Source: Escherichia virus TH22
Sequence record: MT446396.1
Direction: 5' to 3' (one strand)
DNA: 64,000 bases
This document shows positions 2,381 through 57,758 of this stretch, piece after piece. The number at the start of each line of letters is the position of its first letter. The stretch's first letter is position 1. The notes under the pieces are model-generated. The model searched no databases. It saw nothing but the letters and a program-made list of their open reading frames with translations, and was not told the origin of the DNA. A program made the position numbers and the translations under genes.

Positions 2381-3166
2381 TTATTCATCAAAGAAACTAT
2401 CGTCAAAGCTATCCTGTTTTGCCTTAGGTGGAGCCTCAAGTCCACGACCATTCTGCACAAAATATGGTTTAACATATTCAGCTGCTTCTGCGTTAATCTC
2501 ATTGGATTCAGCATAAGGGATATCGCTGATATCTGTAAGACCATCGATATTGTGGATTGGTTGTAAATCGAGCTCACTGAATTCTGGAATATTAATACCT
2601 TCATTTCGTTGCAATTCGGGTTTAAGCTCTTCTCCGGAGTAAATGTATTTGCTCGCGGTGATTTTACGGATAGCATTTTGACCTACCTGATAGAATGGGT
2701 CATAAGGTTGCACCCATGTAATTTCGAACAGGCTGTTATCAAGAGGGAAATAAATCAAATCCCCGGCAATAGGTTCAGTTCCATTGCATTGGTGTTTAAA
2801 CAGATTAGGGTTAATGGATATTGTAATTTCATCGTTCACAGTCATACCGAATTTACTAAAGATAGAACCATCACCCTGATATGCATCGAACGTATCCAGA
2901 TATCCAGCAAATTTCCATGCTTTATCAAATTTACTCTGGAGGTCTTCACCAAATAACAAATCCGGTTTAACGAATTGCCTTGGGATATAATAAAGAGACA
3001 TTCCGCGCATCTGAATACTTTCAGCAACAATAGCATCGGCTAAAGTCTGGGTATTTTCATGATGCATAAAGTTTACATAAGGGTTCAATATCTCTGTAGC
3101 ATTGGTATTGTCATACCCGGTCCCGTCTTCGAGCCGGGCGAATAATCTTGCGTCATAAGTAGCCAT
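2381..3166 (-). CDS. 14: Neck protein gp14
   Basis: 261-aa ORF, size and position (13-14-15) match T4 gp14 (~256 aa). Confidence 0.8.
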
Positions 3167-4104
3167 TAGCCCACCAATATAGGAGTCGGTGCATCCAGCA
3201 GGTCAAGTTCCTCACGAAGACGTTCTTTTTCCATACGAGCTTCTTCAATTAAACGAACACCATCAACCGTGGTACCACCTGGCATCATCATCCCCTGGTG
3301 TTTAGCCAATACGTTGCCGTTAACTTCCTTAACGAGCGCCGTGGCATAGTCTTTCACCCAACGGTTGTTGTATGCGCCATCTTGAAGTCCAAGGTCCTCA
3401 CCTGCTCTCATGCCGCTTATTCTGCGTGCCGGGTTATCCCACTGTGCGCCAGCATTCCACGGATTATCACAATCGGCCGAAGCAAAACCATATCCAGCTG
3501 TATTACCTACCATTGAATCCACGCCGTTATACGATTTGGTATAAACTTCAATTACAATCACATCTCCCTGACGGAAGTTGCCCATAATTTTAAGTTGTTC
3601 AGTATCGTCATTATACCAGTAATCCGGAAGCGGAACCATCAGGTCTTGCATCATTGAACGATATTGCATAAGCTGTGTAAAATAACCAAGGTCTGCACCA
3701 AAAGCATTTGGACCAAAGCTGTTACATGAGCTACCCATTCCACCGTTAATCCCGGCCAGTCCCAGAACAAAATCTGTGAACCATGGATATGTAGCTTGAC
3801 CATCCATCGAAGTTAATGAACCGACGTTAGTACGAATAATCTGCGTTACTGCAAAAATATTACGGCCTTTTAAATCGAAAACACCATCGCGAAATTTCTG
3901 TTGTGAAACGTCATCATGACCGATATAAAAAGCCTGATAACCTTTGTTATAACCATTATAATGATATTCGCCATATAATTCTAATGCACGCTGGATGCAA
4001 TCATAGACCTGTTCGGTCGTAACTTCGATATTCGTAATTGGAGCACCAAGACGTCGAAGGATTGCATCTTTTAATTGTTTCGGGTTGTATGATTCAGTTG
4101 CCAT
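3166..4104 (-). CDS. 13: Neck protein gp13
   Basis: 312-aa ORF downstream of wac as in T4 (gp13 ~309 aa); stop overlaps gene 14 start. Confidence 0.8.
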
Positions 4105-4155: not shown

Positions 4156-5781
4156 TTATGGTCCAACAGTCACGAATGTAGACAAAAGAACCCATGCATT
4201 ATCAACGAGCACATAAGGGAGACCATCAGCTGCAGGAGCGACAGGAGGCCTTTTGGCGAGCTCTGTTTCTAAGGCTGATACTTTACCTTCTAAAGTAGTT
4301 ATCTTCGCCTCGGCCGCATCCAGGCGACCAGGGAGCGGAGTTACTGTACCTTCAAGGGTTGTCACGCGAGTGGTTAATGGTGCAATTTTTGCAGTATCGA
4401 GTTTAATTGCATCAATCTCGGTTCTGGTATCGATAATTTCAGTCCAGTTTCCTTGCTTGCGACCATATAACTTATTGTCCAATGGTGCGTCGTTCAGCTT
4501 GGACGCCATCAGCATATCCAAGTTAATTACAACCGGAAGAACACCACGTTCAGCCACGGTAGCACCGTTAGGGTTTGTACCATTCATCTGGCTAGTTAAA
4601 GTCAAAATAGAGCCTTTCATACCAGTGTTATTTGTACCGATTTCGGCCTGTACATCCTGAAGGCCTGATGCAGTTTCGTTAGCCAGTGTAGTGGTCGCAT
4701 TCAACTTATACGTGATAGTGTTTGGCTCCGGAGATTGCTCTGTACCGATTCTCTGAGAAAGCCATGCAGTGGTTCCGCGTAAACCAGAGCTTGAATCCTG
4801 GCCAACAACAACCTGTAAGCCATTAACATCCGAACGCAAAGCACTGATTCGACCATTAATTGTTAACGGTTCCAGAGCGGTGCCGATATCAGCTTCAACC
4901 TTAGCAAGTCTTGGTTTGATATCCACAATATCTGTTTCATTGACCGAAACACGTCCACCAAGATTTTCAACGCGAGTTGTAATTGCAAGTCCGGTACCAA
5001 AACCAATAGCTTCTTGAATGTTGGCAATATCTTCGTCAATTTCAACTGCTTTACCATCAAGAGTATTCAGTCGAACAAATACAGCCGGTTTACCTGTTGC
5101 TAAAGTAGACTCACCTAATTCTTCACGAATTTTAATTACTTTTACGTTAAGAGAACCAACATCAGAATCATGATAGTTATCTTCAAGAGTCTTAATACGA
5201 ACTCCATGAGCAACAATAGCCGAACTGTTATCGATGATGCGGCGTTTCATGCCTTTTGACGGATTGCCGATAACCTGGAGACCATTTATATCTTGGTCAA
5301 CATACTGGCCTAATTCATTTTTAATCCATACGAGGTCATTACGAACTGTGCGATAATATGAATCGGTTAACGGGTCATAAACACCAACATCTTCTTTTAA
5401 CTTTTTAAGGTCTTCAGATGTTTCGCTTGATAACAATTCGGTATTAAATTGACGTTCATCAAGGTCAAGAATATCCGTACGGTTTTTTTCAATTTGTTTA
5501 ACAACTTCCGTGTTAGTTGTTATATTCAAAGCTTCCTGAATATTATTGACGTTATCAATAATTTCGTTTATTTTTTCTTTAGATGCATTTGAGTTGTCGT
5601 CGAGTGTATCTACGTTTGTTTGAACGCCAACTGCAGCGGCGTTCAAATTACCATCATGACCATATTTGGTACTGGCCGCAGTCATACAATCGCCGTTTTG
5701 TATCCAACGAATTCTCTGTTGACCTTCGTCTGGAATACCGATGCTATACGGCAGTTCTTTGAGACTGAGTTTATTAATCAT
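4156..5781 (-). CDS. wac: Fibritin (whisker antigen control), neck whiskers
   Basis: C-terminus ...GLPYVLVDNAWVLLSTFV resembles the T4 fibritin foldon; long coiled-coil-like body; start set at MINKLSL (5781), 9 nt after gp12 stop, not the upstream in-frame Met of the track ORF. Confidence 0.85.
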   Translation of the reverse strand: MINKLSLKELPYSIGIPDEGQQRIRWIQNGDCMTAASTKYGHDGNLNAAAVGVQTNVDTLDDNSNASKEKINEIIDNVNNIQEALNITTNTEVVKQIEKNRTDILDLDERQFNTELLSSETSEDLKKLKEDVGVYDPLTDSYYRTVRNDLVWIKNELGQYVDQDINGLQVIGNPSKGMKRRIIDNSSAIVAHGVRIKTLEDNYHDSDVGSLNVKVIKIREELGESTLATGKPAVFVRLNTLDGKAVEIDEDIANIQEAIGFGTGLAITTRVENLGGRVSVNETDIVDIKPRLAKVEADIGTALEPLTINGRISALRSDVNGLQVVVGQDSSSGLRGTTAWLSQRIGTEQSPEPNTITYKLNATTTLANETASGLQDVQAEIGTNNTGMKGSILTLTSQMNGTNPNGATVAERGVLPVVINLDMLMASKLNDAPLDNKLYGRKQGNWTEIIDTRTEIDAIKLDTAKIAPLTTRVTTLEGTVTPLPGRLDAAEAKITTLEGKVSALETELAKRPPVAPAADGLPYVLVDNAWVLLSTFVTVGP

Positions 5782-20065: not shown

Positions 20066-20773
20066 ATGAACTATCTAAAACATTACAATAACTTAATCCA
20101 ACGAGCTAAAAATCGAGCACCCATTGATGGTTACAAAGAGAAACATCACATTATTCCAAGATGTATGGGCGGATTAGATACTGATGAAAATTTAGTCGAG
20201 CTTACCGCTCCTGAACATTTTGTCGCCCACCTGTTATTGGTTAAAATTTATCCAGATAATCACTCGTTAGCACATGCTGCGAAAATTCTAATGGGTTCCA
20301 ACAATTACAATAACAAACAATTTGAATGGGTGCGCATCCGCGCTGTTGAGACTTCCATTAAGTTTCACACTGGACGTAAACGTTCAAAACAAACATGTGA
20401 AAATATTTCAAAAGCTCTTAAAGGTAAGAAATATGGCCCGCGCTCTGAAGAGCATTGCAAAAAGTTGTCAGAAGCAGCAAAGGGTAAAAAGTTCTCTGAA
20501 GAACATTGTAAGAAATTATCAGAAAGAGTGTTTACAGATGATTGGCGAGCAAAAATATCCAAGGCAAATAAAGAAAGAGTTTTGGTAAATCATAGCGAGA
20601 AAATAAAGCAAGGTATTACTGATGATGTCAGAAAACGTTTATCAGAGCTTAATAAAAATGCTCCCCGTCACACCTGTGAACACTGTGGAAAAATAACAAA
20701 TCCAGGCAACTATAAACGTTGGCATGGTGAAAATTGTAAGGTACTTAAAAATGGCGTACTCCGGGAAGTTTAA
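20066..20773 (+). CDS. Free-standing HNH homing endonuclease (mob-like) with repeated basic nucleic-acid-binding motifs
   Basis: N-terminal HNH signature EKHHIIPRCMGG...ENLVELTAPEHFVAHLL; repeated KKxSE(E)HCKKLSE motifs; stop overlaps gene 4 start. Confidence 0.8.
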   Translation: MNYLKHYNNLIQRAKNRAPIDGYKEKHHIIPRCMGGLDTDENLVELTAPEHFVAHLLLVKIYPDNHSLAHAAKILMGSNNYNNKQFEWVRIRAVETSIKFHTGRKRSKQTCENISKALKGKKYGPRSEEHCKKLSEAAKGKKFSEEHCKKLSERVFTDDWRAKISKANKERVLVNHSEKIKQGITDDVRKRLSELNKNAPRHTCEHCGKITNPGNYKRWHGENCKVLKNGVLREV

Positions 20774-21200: not shown

Positions 21201-22024
21201 GTATTTTTACATTTATCAATGAATCTGCAGATAAACCAGGTCCGAAACCCAGTAAATCAGAACAACAATGGGTTGAGATAGGGGTTGAATTTTATACAGC
21301 AAAAGAAAAAGGAATGACCTCGAAGAAGTTTGCTGAAGAGAAAGGAATCAACTATTCGACCTTTACCAAAAGCATGTCGAGGTATCATTCAAGAATTCAG
21401 ACTGCTTATAAAGTATCCAAGCTCAAAAAGAAACCTGCTGGTAAACTTACGAAGGCTGAACGCCAGCTGATAATGGTGAATAGCTTTAGGAAGAGCATAA
21501 GAGATAAGATTGCTAACGAAGGCGCTGCAAGCAACACCAAATCTGCCAGATGGTTCGCAGAGACAATTAAGAAATCAGTTCGCGGCCACGTAACGGCTAA
21601 ACCTCAACCAGGTAAACTTTATGCTTATATCTATGATGCAAAGCATAAGGATACTCTTCCATACTGGGACAAATATCCGTTAATCATTTATCTTGGTCTA
21701 GGTAAGCATAATTTGATGTACGGTTTGAACTTGCACTATATTCCACCGAAGGCACGTCAAGAGTTCCTTGAGGAACTTCTTAAGCAATATGCTAATACTC
21801 CTACGATTACAAACAAGACTCATCTGAAGATTGATTGGTCAAAGGTGAAGGGATTTAAAGGGGCTGACCAGATGATTAAAGCATATATACCCGGCAATAT
21901 AAAAGGTACTATCACTGAAATCAAGCCCAGCGACTGGGCAAATGTGGTATTACTCCCCCTTCAGCAGTTTTTTTCAAAAGGCAAAAGATATTCTTCCCAG
22001 AAAGTATGGAGAAATTCACTTTGA
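21197..22024 (+). CDS. 2: DNA end protector protein gp2
   Basis: Start at MSIFTF (ATGA overlap with gene 4 stop) gives 275 aa (T4 gp2 ~274 aa); in-frame alternative start at 21188. Confidence 0.8.
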
Positions 22025-22680
22025 ATTATCAGTTTATATATTCATCGTTAATTGAAAGGGCCTGTAACAGGGTCCTGATTTCATATAAAGAATCTCATCA
22101 CATCATTCCGAAATGTATGGGTGGTTCAAATGACCCAGATAATCTGGTCGATTTGACTCCTGAGGAACATTATGTAGCCCATCAACTATTGGTTAAAATA
22201 TATCCTACAAATCCAGGTTTAAGTTTTGCTGCTACATCCATGTGCCAGTCAAGCAAGTATTTGAAACGCAATAATAAATTATTTGGTTGGTTAAGACGTA
22301 GACACGCTGACAATATTTCTAAAAGTCAAACCGGTAAAGTTTACTTTAATAATGGTGTCAAATCGATAAAACTATTTCCATGGGAAAATATTCCGGATGG
22401 GTTTGTCAAAGGAAGACATTACAGTCCAACCAAGGGTACAAAACATTCTCGCAATAATGGTCATTTTAAAAATAAAGAGATTCAGGATGAATTGAGAAAG
22501 CGCCGGTGGGAAAAAGATAGGCAAGAAATGTGTAAAAACTTCGGAGTTGATACCGTCGAGCAAGCTCGAGAGTTGGTCTTAGCATATAAAAAGGAATTGC
22601 ATCCTCGATACTGGGTAAAGCCAATGTTGGAACGTTATCCGTTTATGACTAAGCTAAGACTTAACACATTAATAAAATAA
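22006..22680 (+). CDS. Free-standing HNH homing endonuclease (second copy, paralog of 20066)
   Basis: HNH signature [12 protein letters not shown]...[23 protein letters not shown] closely parallels the 20066 protein; start overlaps gene 2 end. Confidence 0.8.
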
Positions 22681-27501: not shown

Positions 27502-27575
27502 GGCCCTGTAGCTGGACGGTCAAGCGAGCGACTCATAATCGCTGGATGGTGGTTCGATTCCACCCAGGGCCACCA
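27502..27575 (+). tRNA. tRNA with anticodon CAT (Met, or Ile if lysidine-modified)
   Basis: Cloverleaf folds by hand: acceptor GGCCCTG/CAGGGCC, D-loop with GG, anticodon stem AGCGA/TCGCT, loop CTCATAA, T-arm GGTGG-TTCGATT-CCACC, encoded CCA. Confidence 0.85.
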
Positions 27576-27709: not shown

Positions 27710-27785
27710 CGAGGCATAGCTCAGAAGGAAGAGCAAGGACCTTCTAAGTCCTAGGTCGTAGGTTCGATTCCTACTGTCTCGACCA
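27710..27785 (+). tRNA. tRNA-Arg (anticodon TCT)
   Basis: Acceptor CGAGGCA/TGTCTCG, D-arm GCTC...GAGC, anticodon stem AGGAC/GTCCT with loop CTTCTAA, T-arm GTAGG-TTCGATT-CCTAC, encoded CCA. Confidence 0.9.
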
Positions 27786-54681: not shown

Positions 54682-54854
54682 AAACTGCATTAGTCTATAC
54701 CGAAAAGTTAAATGGTGTCAAGGTCTGGAAACTTCTTATTAAAGGAAGTCCTACCGACCAGTTTATGGCCACCTGTGTAGGATTGTATACTCGTCCTACT
54801 AAAAAGATGATTCGTCAATTTAAACGGTTACACCGCGCGTTTTATAAGATTTAA
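54678..54854 (+). CDS. Small ORF (58 aa), below track cutoff
   Basis: ATGA overlap with previous stop; basic C-terminus. Confidence 0.4.
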   Translation: MKTALVYTEKLNGVKVWKLLIKGSPTDQFMATCVGLYTRPTKKMIRQFKRLHRAFYKI

Positions 54855-54889
54855 TAAATACCCTTATCTAATAATGGTAAGGGTTTATT

Positions 54890-55363
54890 ATGTTGTTGAC
54901 TGGCAAATTATACAAAGAAGAAAAACAAAAACTTTATGATGCACAAGCTGGTAAGTGTCCAATTTGCCACCGTGATTTGGACTCCGATGTTCAGGCCAAC
55001 CATCTTGACCATGACCACGAATTGAACGGGCCAAAAGCTGGTAAGGTTCGCGGGTTACTATGCAATCTGTGCAATGGGACAGAAGGACAAATGAAGCATA
55101 AGTTCAGCCGTTCGGGTCTGAAAAGTCGCGATGTTGACTACCTGGAATGGTTAGAGAGTTTGCTTGTCTATCTGAAATCTGATTATACCGAAAACAATAT
55201 TCACCCCAATTTTGTAACAGACAAAGCCAAAGAGTTCGGTCGTCTGGGGAAAGAAGAAATGATTCGGGAAATGCTTTTGAATGGTATGACTTATAATGAA
55301 TCTGACACCAAAACACAATTAATGGCTTCATTTAAGAAGCAGCTTAGAAAGAGTTTAAAATGA
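54890..55363 (+). CDS. 49: Endonuclease VII (Holliday-junction resolvase)
   Basis: MLLTGKLYKEEKQK...GKCPICHRDL...HLDHDHELNGPKAGKVRGLLCNLCN...KKQLRKSLK matches T4 gp49 (157 aa) including Zn site and H-N-H-like catalytic core. Confidence 0.9.
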   Translation: MLLTGKLYKEEKQKLYDAQAGKCPICHRDLDSDVQANHLDHDHELNGPKAGKVRGLLCNLCNGTEGQMKHKFSRSGLKSRDVDYLEWLESLLVYLKSDYTENNIHPNFVTDKAKEFGRLGKEEMIREMLLNGMTYNESDTKTQLMASFKKQLRKSLK

Positions 55364-57177
55364 CAATTGAAAACGAAATTGAAGGATTGATTCATAAAAC
55401 TAATAAAGACCTTTTAAACGAGAATGCTAATAAAGATTCTCGTGTTTTTCCAACTCAACGGGACCTTATGGCTGGTATTGTATCTAAACACATTGCCAAA
55501 AATATGGTCGCGTCTTTTATTATGAAAGCACATGAAAGTGGAATTATTCATTTCCATGATATTGATTATTCCCCTGCTCTTCCATTTACTAATTGCTGTT
55601 TAGTAGATTTAAAAGGAATGCTTGAGAACGGATTTAAGCTTGGTAATGCACAGATTGAAACTCCTAAATCAATCGGTGTTGCTACTGCAATTATGGCACA
55701 AATTACTGCACAGGTTGCTTCTCACCAATATGGCGGAACGACTTTTGCTAATGTAGACAAAGTATTTTCTCCTTATGTTAAACGTACATACGCAAAACAT
55801 ATTGAAGATGCAGAAAAATGGCAAATCACTGATGCATTGAATTATGCCCAATCTAAAACAGAAAAAGACGTATACGATGCATTCCAAGCTTATGAATATG
55901 AAGTAAATACGCTCTTTAGTTCAAATGGGCAAACGCCTTTTGTGACAATTACGTTTGGCACGGGAACTGACTGGACTGAACGAATGATTCAGAAAGCAAT
56001 TCTGAAAAATCGTATCAAAGGTCTTGGTCGCGATGGGATAACTCCTATTTTCCCTAAACTTGTTATGTTCGTTGAAGAAGGTGTTAATCTTTATAAAGAC
56101 GACCCGAACTATGATATTAAGCAGCTTGCTCTAGAGTGTGCAAGCAAAAGAATGTATCCTGATATTATTTCAGCTAAGAACAATAAAGCTATCACTGGTT
56201 CATCTATTCCTGTTTCTCCAATGGGTTGCCGTAGTTTCTTGGGCGTATGGAAAGATTCGACTGGTAATGAAATTCTTGATGGACGTAATAATCTTGGTGT
56301 TGTAACACTGAATCTTCCTCGCATTGCGTTAGATTCTTATATTGGAACACAGTTCAATGAACAGAAATTTATCGAATTGTTCAATGAGCGAATGGATTTG
56401 TGTTTTGAAGCTTTGATGTGTAGAATTAGTTCTTTAAAAGGAGTTAAAGCGACTGTTGCTCCTATTCTTTACCAAGAAGGTGCATTCGGGGTTCGTCTTA
56501 AACCTGATGATGATATAATTGAGTTATTTAAAAACGGTAGAAGTTCAGTGTCTTTGGGATACATTGGTATTCACGAATTGAATATTCTTGCCGGTCGTGA
56601 TATTGGGCAAGAAATTTTAACTAAAATGAATGCTCGTCTTAAGCAGTGGACTGAAAGAACCGGTTTTGCTTTTAGTTTGTATTCTACACCTGCTGAAAAC
56701 CTTTGTTATCGCTTCTGTAAACTTGATACTGAAAAATATGGAAGTGTAAAAGATGTTACCGATAAAGGATGGTACACTAACAGTTTCCACGTTTCAGTAG
56801 AAGAAAATATTACTCCGTTTGAAAAGATTTCTCGCGAAGCCCCATATCATTTCATTGCGACAGGTGGTCACATTTCTTATGTTGAACTTCCTGATATGAA
56901 AAATAACTTAAAAGGTCTTGAGGCTGTATGGGATTATGCCGCGCAACATTTAGATTATTTTGGTGTTAATATGCCAGTAGATAAATGTTTTACGTGTGGA
57001 AGTACCCATGAAATGACTCCTACTGAAAACGGATTTGTTTGTTCTATTTGTGGAGAAACTGACCCTAAAAAGATGAACACAATAAGAAGAACTTGCGGTT
57101 ATTTGGGAAATCCGAACGAACGTGGATTTAATCTCGGCAAAAATAAAGAAATCATGCATAGGGTTAAACACCAATGA
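55360..57177 (+). CDS. nrdD: Anaerobic ribonucleoside-triphosphate reductase NrdD
   Basis: 605 aa, same length as T4 NrdD; C-terminal Zn ribbon CFTCGSTHEM...CSICGE and glycyl-radical tail RTCGYLGN; single uninterrupted ORF. Confidence 0.95.
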   Translation: MTIENEIEGLIHKTNKDLLNENANKDSRVFPTQRDLMAGIVSKHIAKNMVASFIMKAHESGIIHFHDIDYSPALPFTNCCLVDLKGMLENGFKLGNAQIETPKSIGVATAIMAQITAQVASHQYGGTTFANVDKVFSPYVKRTYAKHIEDAEKWQITDALNYAQSKTEKDVYDAFQAYEYEVNTLFSSNGQTPFVTITFGTGTDWTERMIQKAILKNRIKGLGRDGITPIFPKLVMFVEEGVNLYKDDPNYDIKQLALECASKRMYPDIISAKNNKAITGSSIPVSPMGCRSFLGVWKDSTGNEILDGRNNLGVVTLNLPRIALDSYIGTQFNEQKFIELFNERMDLCFEALMCRISSLKGVKATVAPILYQEGAFGVRLKPDDDIIELFKNGRSSVSLGYIGIHELNILAGRDIGQEILTKMNARLKQWTERTGFAFSLYSTPAENLCYRFCKLDTEKYGSVKDVTDKGWYTNSFHVSVEENITPFEKISREAPYHFIATGGHISYVELPDMKNNLKGLEAVWDYAAQHLDYFGVNMPVDKCFTCGSTHEMTPTENGFVCSICGETDPKKMNTIRRTCGYLGNPNERGFNLGKNKEIMHRVKHQ

Positions 57178-57644
57178 ATTATGATAGATTTTATCCTTGT
57201 GATTTTGTGAATGGCCCTGGATGCAGGGTCGTTCTTTTCGTTACAGGTTGTTTGCATAAATGTGAAGGGTGTTATAATAAATCAACATGGAATGCTAGAA
57301 ATGGGGTTCCATTCACTGGTGAAACACTAGAACAATTAATTGAATGTTTGAATAATGATTATATAGAAGGATTAACTATAACTGGAGGAGACCCTCTCTA
57401 TCCTGATAACCGAGATGTTATTCACTCTGTGGTTCAAACTGTTAAAAATCTTTATCCAAATAAAAGCATTTGGATGTGGACAGGATATAAGTTTGAAGAT
57501 ATTAAACAACTAGAAATGCTTAAATATGTTGATGTTATTATTGATGGGAAGTATGAGAAAAATCTTCCGACCAAAAAACTGTGGCGAGGGTCAGATAATC
57601 AGCGACTTTGGTCAAATACCGATGGGGTGTGGAAACATGATTAA
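57174..57644 (+). CDS. nrdG: Anaerobic RNR activating protein NrdG (radical SAM)
   Basis: Radical-SAM cysteine cluster CLHKCEGCYNK; overlaps nrdD stop. Confidence 0.9.
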   Translation: MNYDRFYPCDFVNGPGCRVVLFVTGCLHKCEGCYNKSTWNARNGVPFTGETLEQLIECLNNDYIEGLTITGGDPLYPDNRDVIHSVVQTVKNLYPNKSIWMWTGYKFEDIKQLEMLKYVDVIIDGKYEKNLPTKKLWRGSDNQRLWSNTDGVWKHD

Positions 57645-57758
57645 ATTTAATTATATTATGGATACTATAAATGATATGATTTTTCATTTTGGTCCAGAAT
57701 TTTATTCGCAGTATAGTTTAGTGCTTATCAATGCTTGGTTAATCAATTAAGGGTAAAT

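Follow-up and report, generated by a model that had tools for sequence, protein, structure and literature searches.

The window analysed here is a 64,000-nt stretch of Escherichia virus TH22 (MT446396.1), in which we examined nrdD and its two neighbours:

54890..55363, + strand: gene 49, endonuclease VII, 157 aa (Pfam Endonuclease_7 and Endonuc-dimeris; position as T4 gene 49)
55360..57177, + strand: nrdD, large subunit of the anaerobic (class III) ribonucleoside-triphosphate reductase (ORF, Pfam, PDB 1h78 and key residues)
57174..57644, + strand: nrdG, 156 aa, the radical-SAM protein that activates NrdD (Pfam Radical_SAM, and Fer4_12 at 3.1e-49)

According to the ORF listing of the window, nrdD is a single frame on the + strand that opens with ATG and encodes 605 aa; the chance origin of a 605-codon ORF at about 38% G+C is far beyond expectation. 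The Pfam model NRDD (PF13597) matched the product with E=2.6e-170, its positions 1-562 of 562 being covered in one stretch by residues 21-604, and Gly_radical (PF01228) was matched as well (1.3e-25). The top PDB match was T4 NrdD (1h78, 605 aa), aligned over 1-605 in both proteins. At the C terminus we found the glycyl-radical motif RxCGY (IRRTCGYLGNP), with the G at 580 in T4 numbering, and Cys79, Cys290, Asn311, Cys543/546/561/564 and Gly580 were every one kept at the T4 position. By the roles and numbering of the T4 enzyme we take Cys79, Cys290 and Asn311 to form the active site and Cys543/546/561/564 to be the four-Cys zinc site; among the differences from T4 NrdD, none falls on the first three residues or on the zinc-site cysteines. 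These matches establish the identity and integrity of the gene: judged by its sequence, the ORF is an intact, full-length class III anaerobic ribonucleotide reductase large subunit NrdD with predicted activity.

The stop of gene 49 and the start of nrdD overlap in ATGA, as do the stop of nrdD and the start of nrdG (57174-57177). T4 shares both neighbours, gene 49 upstream and nrdG downstream, but in T4 the HNH gene mobC sits between nrdD and nrdG, a slot that is empty in the window. In FL44 the same slot is filled by a 276-aa GIY-YIG gene (4773-5603 of the FL44 locus), whereas in T2 and RB69 nrdD overlaps nrdG without mobC, as in the window. The window locus carries neither mobile element of T4, that is, neither the nrdD intron nor mobC. 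As a separate observation, the stretch upstream of gene 49 (about 54800-54890 in the window) is longer in CJ20, by about 93 bp, and a like length difference of about 93-94 bp was seen in the locus match spans of TH54 and Yersinia phage P8. Placed upstream of gene 49 in CJ20, this difference was dropped as a feature of nrdD.

T4 nrdD (sunY; NC_000866, 43535..46385; NP_049690) is annotated as a two-piece join with I-TevII inside. Its locus spans 2,851 nt, against 1,818 nt in the window, for the same 605-aa product; the excess is a group IA intron of 1,033 nt that follows CDS nt 538, codes for I-TevII and is missing from the window gene. BLAST of the window nrdD against the T4 locus gave two collinear blocks that lie 1,033 nt apart and part between CDS nt 538 and 539. 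The sole junction that combines an open frame with the group I signature (exon ends in U, intron ends in G) reads ...GCTTATGAGT, then the intron, then ATGAAGTGAAC..., and again lies after CDS nt 538. Transferred to the window, this gives two further features:

55897..55898, + strand: empty intron insertion point (gapless alignment to the T4 exons; same junction in IME537, FL44 and TH58)
55878..55927, + strand: homing-site equivalent, -20..+30 of the insertion point, with TGCATTCCAAGCTTATGAAT before that point and ATGAAGTAAATACGCTCTTTAGTTCAAATG after it

The insertion point falls after the first base of the Tyr180 codon TAT, and both the T4 intron (1,033 nt) and a second, IME537-type intron (1,045 nt) sit there. 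In the window the two positions are contiguous and form an uninterrupted exon junction. Aligned to spliced T4 nrdD, the window gene shows 96 substitutions and no gaps, with 94.7% nucleotide and 98.2% amino acid identity (11 aa differences). Rfam at the gathering threshold returned no group I intron (RF00028) in the 64-kb window, its hits being just two tRNAs. Both positive controls were detected in the same search, at 105 bits (T4 intron) and 72 bits (IME537 intron), which makes the negative result in the window meaningful. No fragments of a T4-type or IME537-type intron, or of I-TevII, were found in the window, and the I-TevII and IME537 endonuclease proteins, used as tblastn queries, gave just a weak NUMOD3-like patch (20405..20530), located inside an HNH gene. 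Since the 605-aa alignment is gapless and there is no group I match, the window nrdD is a cleanly intron-minus allele, and both the absence of the intron and the position of the empty site are established. The sequence-only reading had anticipated much of this. It had described an ORF continuous at the T4 protein length, borne out by 605 aa in both phages and by the Pfam model covered in one stretch; a group I intron in T4 nrdD, which is the 1,033-nt block in NC_000866 with I-TevII inside and 105 bits to RF00028; and a clean intron-minus allele, in agreement with the finding that nothing is inserted at the T4 junction. Alignment with the T4 exon junctions, which it had proposed as the check, leaves zero gaps once the 1,033-nt intron is removed.

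The second group I intron lineage occupies exactly the T4 nrdD insertion point in IME537, FL44, JK45, HY03, TH58 and others (positions 2456-3500 of the extracted IME537 locus and 2501-3545 of the TH58 locus; the intron was also located in the extracted FL44 locus). It shares about 70% identity with the T4 intron and codes for a GIY-YIG/NUMOD1 endonuclease that is 56% identical to I-TevII. IME537-type introns occur in Tequatrovirus and Mosigvirus and in more phage records (44 full-length) than the T4 type (25); our literature search found no paper describing them. In 215Ecol030PP (PP328843) and BYEP01 (OR757453) the IME537-type intron is shortened to 46% and 34% of its length, in two pieces each, and these copies appear to be endonuclease-deleted mini-introns. 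About 290 further phage records hold short matches (at least 95% identity) to part of the IME537-type intron, often as a second match within one genome; no such matches occur in the window.

TH58 is a Mosigvirus from raw sewage in the USA, a source description that it shares with TH55, a close relative of the window phage. It carries the IME537-type intron together with the IME537 flank haplotype, which extends from about -57 to +62; these tract bounds are approximate, as RB69, the reference for the comparison, is not the parent of TH58. RB69 belongs to the same genus but is intron-less and has the T2 form of the site. Given that TH58 has the intron with IME537 flanks and RB69 the T2 site, the common empty site is evidently invadable by the IME537-type intron across genera.

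How ordinary the intron-less state is can be seen from the 1,092-1,145 phage records that contain nrdD. The T4-type intron is confined to 25 of them, mostly T4 isolates, together with RB55, RB59, PST, Manna, G8, RPN226, fPS-2, U5 and EC128, while the IME537-type intron is found full-length in 44 and shortened in 2. Introns are thereby present in about 6% of nrdD-bearing records and absent from about 94%. This establishes their rarity: the intron-less state of nrdD is the majority, ordinary condition in T4-like phages, and it is probably also the ancestral one. That the T4 introns are patchily distributed in T-even phages is knowledge dating from the late 1980s (PMC2988022).

Among the closest relatives, Escherichia phages TH55 (MT446421) and UPEC07 (MW250787), both classified as Gaprivervirus, Tevenvirinae, match the window region 54800..57700 (2,901 nt) at 100% identity. 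The UPEC07 record annotates the same gene as anaerobic NTP reductase large subunit; the window allele is already known, being deposited in GenBank and annotated there in UPEC07. The Gaprivervirus phages vB_EcoM_RZ, SP18 and VR20, with nrdD loci 96-98.8% identical to that of the window, are intron-less too. The best 40 matches to the window locus have spans of 2,855-2,995 nt and therefore hold no intron, and an intron was present in 0 of the 35 records that are at least 95% identical to it.

We then compared the empty site with its counterparts. Over -20..+30 the window is identical to the T2/RB69 allele at 48 of 50 positions and differs at +14 (G, not T) and +29 (T, not C), both synonymous. 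The G at +14 is T4's own exon base; T2 has T at this position and IME537 has A. The T2/RB69 50-mer occurs exactly in 423 phage records, all of them intron-less, and the window 50-mer exactly in 7, with 508 further records within 1-2 mismatches of it. RB69, of another genus, equals T2 across the whole 90 nt compared around the site. The nrdD genes of T2 (AP018813, 40833..42650) and RB69 (NC_004928, 45444..47261) are uninterrupted at 1,818 nt, and the window gene is 96.1% and 93.2% identical to them, respectively, at the nucleotide level.

Substitutions between the window and T2 are not concentrated at the site (2 of 50 positions, 1.95 expected; ratio of 1.0 to the gene-wide rate), whereas comparisons of intron-plus with intron-minus alleles showed a 2.8- to 6.7-fold enrichment there. 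Between the window and T4, CDS nt 541-600 contain 12 differences where 3.2 are expected, all of them synonymous (Poisson P about 1e-4; 0.004 corrected for 30 bins), and the differences nearest the insertion site are at -2, +8, +11, +15, +17 and +20. A search for the T4 spliced-junction 60-mer among uninterrupted phage records found none above 93.3% identity, with 793 records at 80-90%. As no intron-less record has the T4 flanks and the window differs from T2 at the background rate, the T4 flanks are peculiar to intron carriers. By the same comparisons, the cluster of differences 3′ of the insertion site is to be assigned to the intron carriers and not to an adaptation of the window phage. We accordingly rejected site divergence in the window lineage as an escape from I-TevII: the T2/RB69 match is at the background rate and T4 is the outlier. 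Flanking exons are co-converted during intron homing (PMC2988022), and flanks peculiar to intron carriers are as expected from such co-conversion. The IME537-type introns have a flank haplotype of their own (-2G, +14A, +17T, +20C, +23C, +26T), although at +8 and +11 their 3′ flank has the bases of the window. Set against T4, IME537 and TH58, the window allele shows which exon bases travel with the intron, namely the G at -2 and the block from +8 to +26, and the link between flank bases and intron is established by these comparisons.

Exon position -2 deserves separate mention. The G that pairs there with the internal guide sequence is not present in the window, which has A (GAA before the insertion point, T after it). 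This A is shared by T2, RB69 and 20 of 20 intron-less IMG/VR alleles; G was found in T4, IME537, FL44 and TH58. The IMG/VR scan, made with a codon-degenerate junction pattern, yielded 20 loci, too few for allele frequencies, which were taken from the phage collection. Fold prediction for both intron types pairs exon UAUGAGU with the guide sequence GCUCAUG to give P1 (-7.1 and -5.7 kcal/mol), and in a small fold prediction with A at -2 the P1 helix was lost. Because the predicted P1 is lost with A, the model implies that homing into the window allele would have to co-convert -2, two bases from the intron.

Taken together, we read the locus as a standard intron-less Gaprivervirus nrdD whose insertion site is unoccupied and probably cleavable by an I-TevII-type endonuclease, and we give this reading a probability of about 0.9. 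The gene would be translated directly, without splicing, in one transcript with the activase gene nrdG. On co-infection with an intron carrier, an I-TevII-type endonuclease would probably cut the empty site, cleavage being probable because the site is near-identical to that of hundreds of intron-less phages. Repair of the cut copies would then bring in the intron together with flanking exon bases of the donor, including the A-to-G change at -2 needed for P1. The I-TevII cut reportedly lies at about +13/+15 relative to the insertion point, and T2 is said to have served as an experimental intron recipient. The nrdD intron is mobile, and intron-encoded enzymes cleave at most 25 bp away from where the intron inserts (PMC2988022). 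The susceptibility of the window site to cleavage and homing is what we infer from its likeness to the other sites, and as a potential I-TevII-type homing target it is plausible. The value of the allele is modest: it can serve as a clean reference point for a site without the intron.

An intron is absent from all 35 close relatives, which could be due to a barrier or to a mere lack of opportunity. Carriers of the diverged, IME537-type intron are recorded from raw sewage too, and that intron has crossed into Mosigvirus, which bears on whether the Gaprivervirus lineage is refractory to invasion by the nrdD intron in spite of a near-consensus empty site. We consider this unlikely; if true, it would point to a barrier beyond the presence of the site, such as less efficient cutting with +14G/+29T, a difference in DNA modification or exclusion in the course of co-infection. 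A more specific version, in which the lineage resists the intron endonucleases owing to the synonymous +14 and +29 changes and is intron-free, with its close relatives, for that reason, seems to us about as unlikely. It would account for the two differences from the dominant intron-less allele in -20..+30, for the rarity of the exact window 50-mer (7 records) and for the count of 0 of 35 records at 95% identity or more, this last in spite of a carrier, TH58, from the same source as TH55, raw sewage in the USA. The site, however, is substituted at no more than the gene-wide density, with no sign of targeted change; the G at +14 is the base of the T4 exon itself, and a position at which T4, T2 and IME537 have three different bases (G, T and A, respectively) looks tolerant. 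I-TevI and I-TevII, moreover, have lengthy recognition sequences and bind in the minor groove (PMC2988022), and the title of a cited 1993 paper calls the I-TevI contacts sequence-tolerant.

A precise past loss, by which the lineage once had the intron and is now in a secondary intron-minus state, is very improbable. Such introns do decay, as the short, apparently endonuclease-deleted IME537-type copies in 215Ecol030PP and BYEP01 illustrate, but the window lacks the flanks linked to the intron, having A at -2 and the bases of intron-less alleles at +8, +11, +15, +17 and +20; it also holds no intron relic, and its close relatives are all intron-less. An intron or intein overlooked in nrdD, which the sequence-only reading had already thought unlikely, is refuted by the gapless alignment to spliced T4 nrdD at an equal 605 aa, by the Pfam model matched over 1-562 in one stretch, by the match to PDB 1h78 over 1-605 and by the lack of an RF00028 match with working positive controls.

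The standard intron-less nrdD shares the window with two genes for homing endonucleases:

20066..20773, + strand: free-standing HNH homing-endonuclease gene, 235 aa (phrog_655, 6.6e-61; NUMOD3)
22006..22680, + strand: second free-standing HNH homing-endonuclease gene, 224 aa (phrog_655, 6.9e-57)

The products are paralogues with 45% amino acid identity, and T4 MobC is related to both (35% identity, E=1e-14, to the first; 39%, E=5e-15, to the second); the Pfam HNH match of the second is weak, at 20.4 bits against a cut-off of 21.4. By the annotation of the near-identical UPEC07, the two genes flank the gene 4 / gene 2 pair. It had been stated from the sequence that homing endonucleases lie elsewhere in the window, and the two ORFs do match phrog_655 'homing endonuclease'; the surprise that nrdD is uninterrupted "despite" them was misplaced, given that about 94% of nrdD records are intron-less and that the HNH genes are free-standing. 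Free-standing genes do not predict an nrdD intron, so the "despite" is a non sequitur: these MobC-like HNH genes have their own, unrelated targets and have no bearing on nrdD.

Beyond the nrdD locus, the window and UPEC07 form a mosaic, with 99.8% identity over 277-25420, 85-96% and many indels over about 25.7-48.8 kb, and 99.45% over 48.8-63.7 kb, which suggests that the variable early-gene region was replaced by recombination. The window has only two tRNA genes, Met-CAT and Arg-TCT, placed by Rfam at 27502-27575 and 27710-27785.
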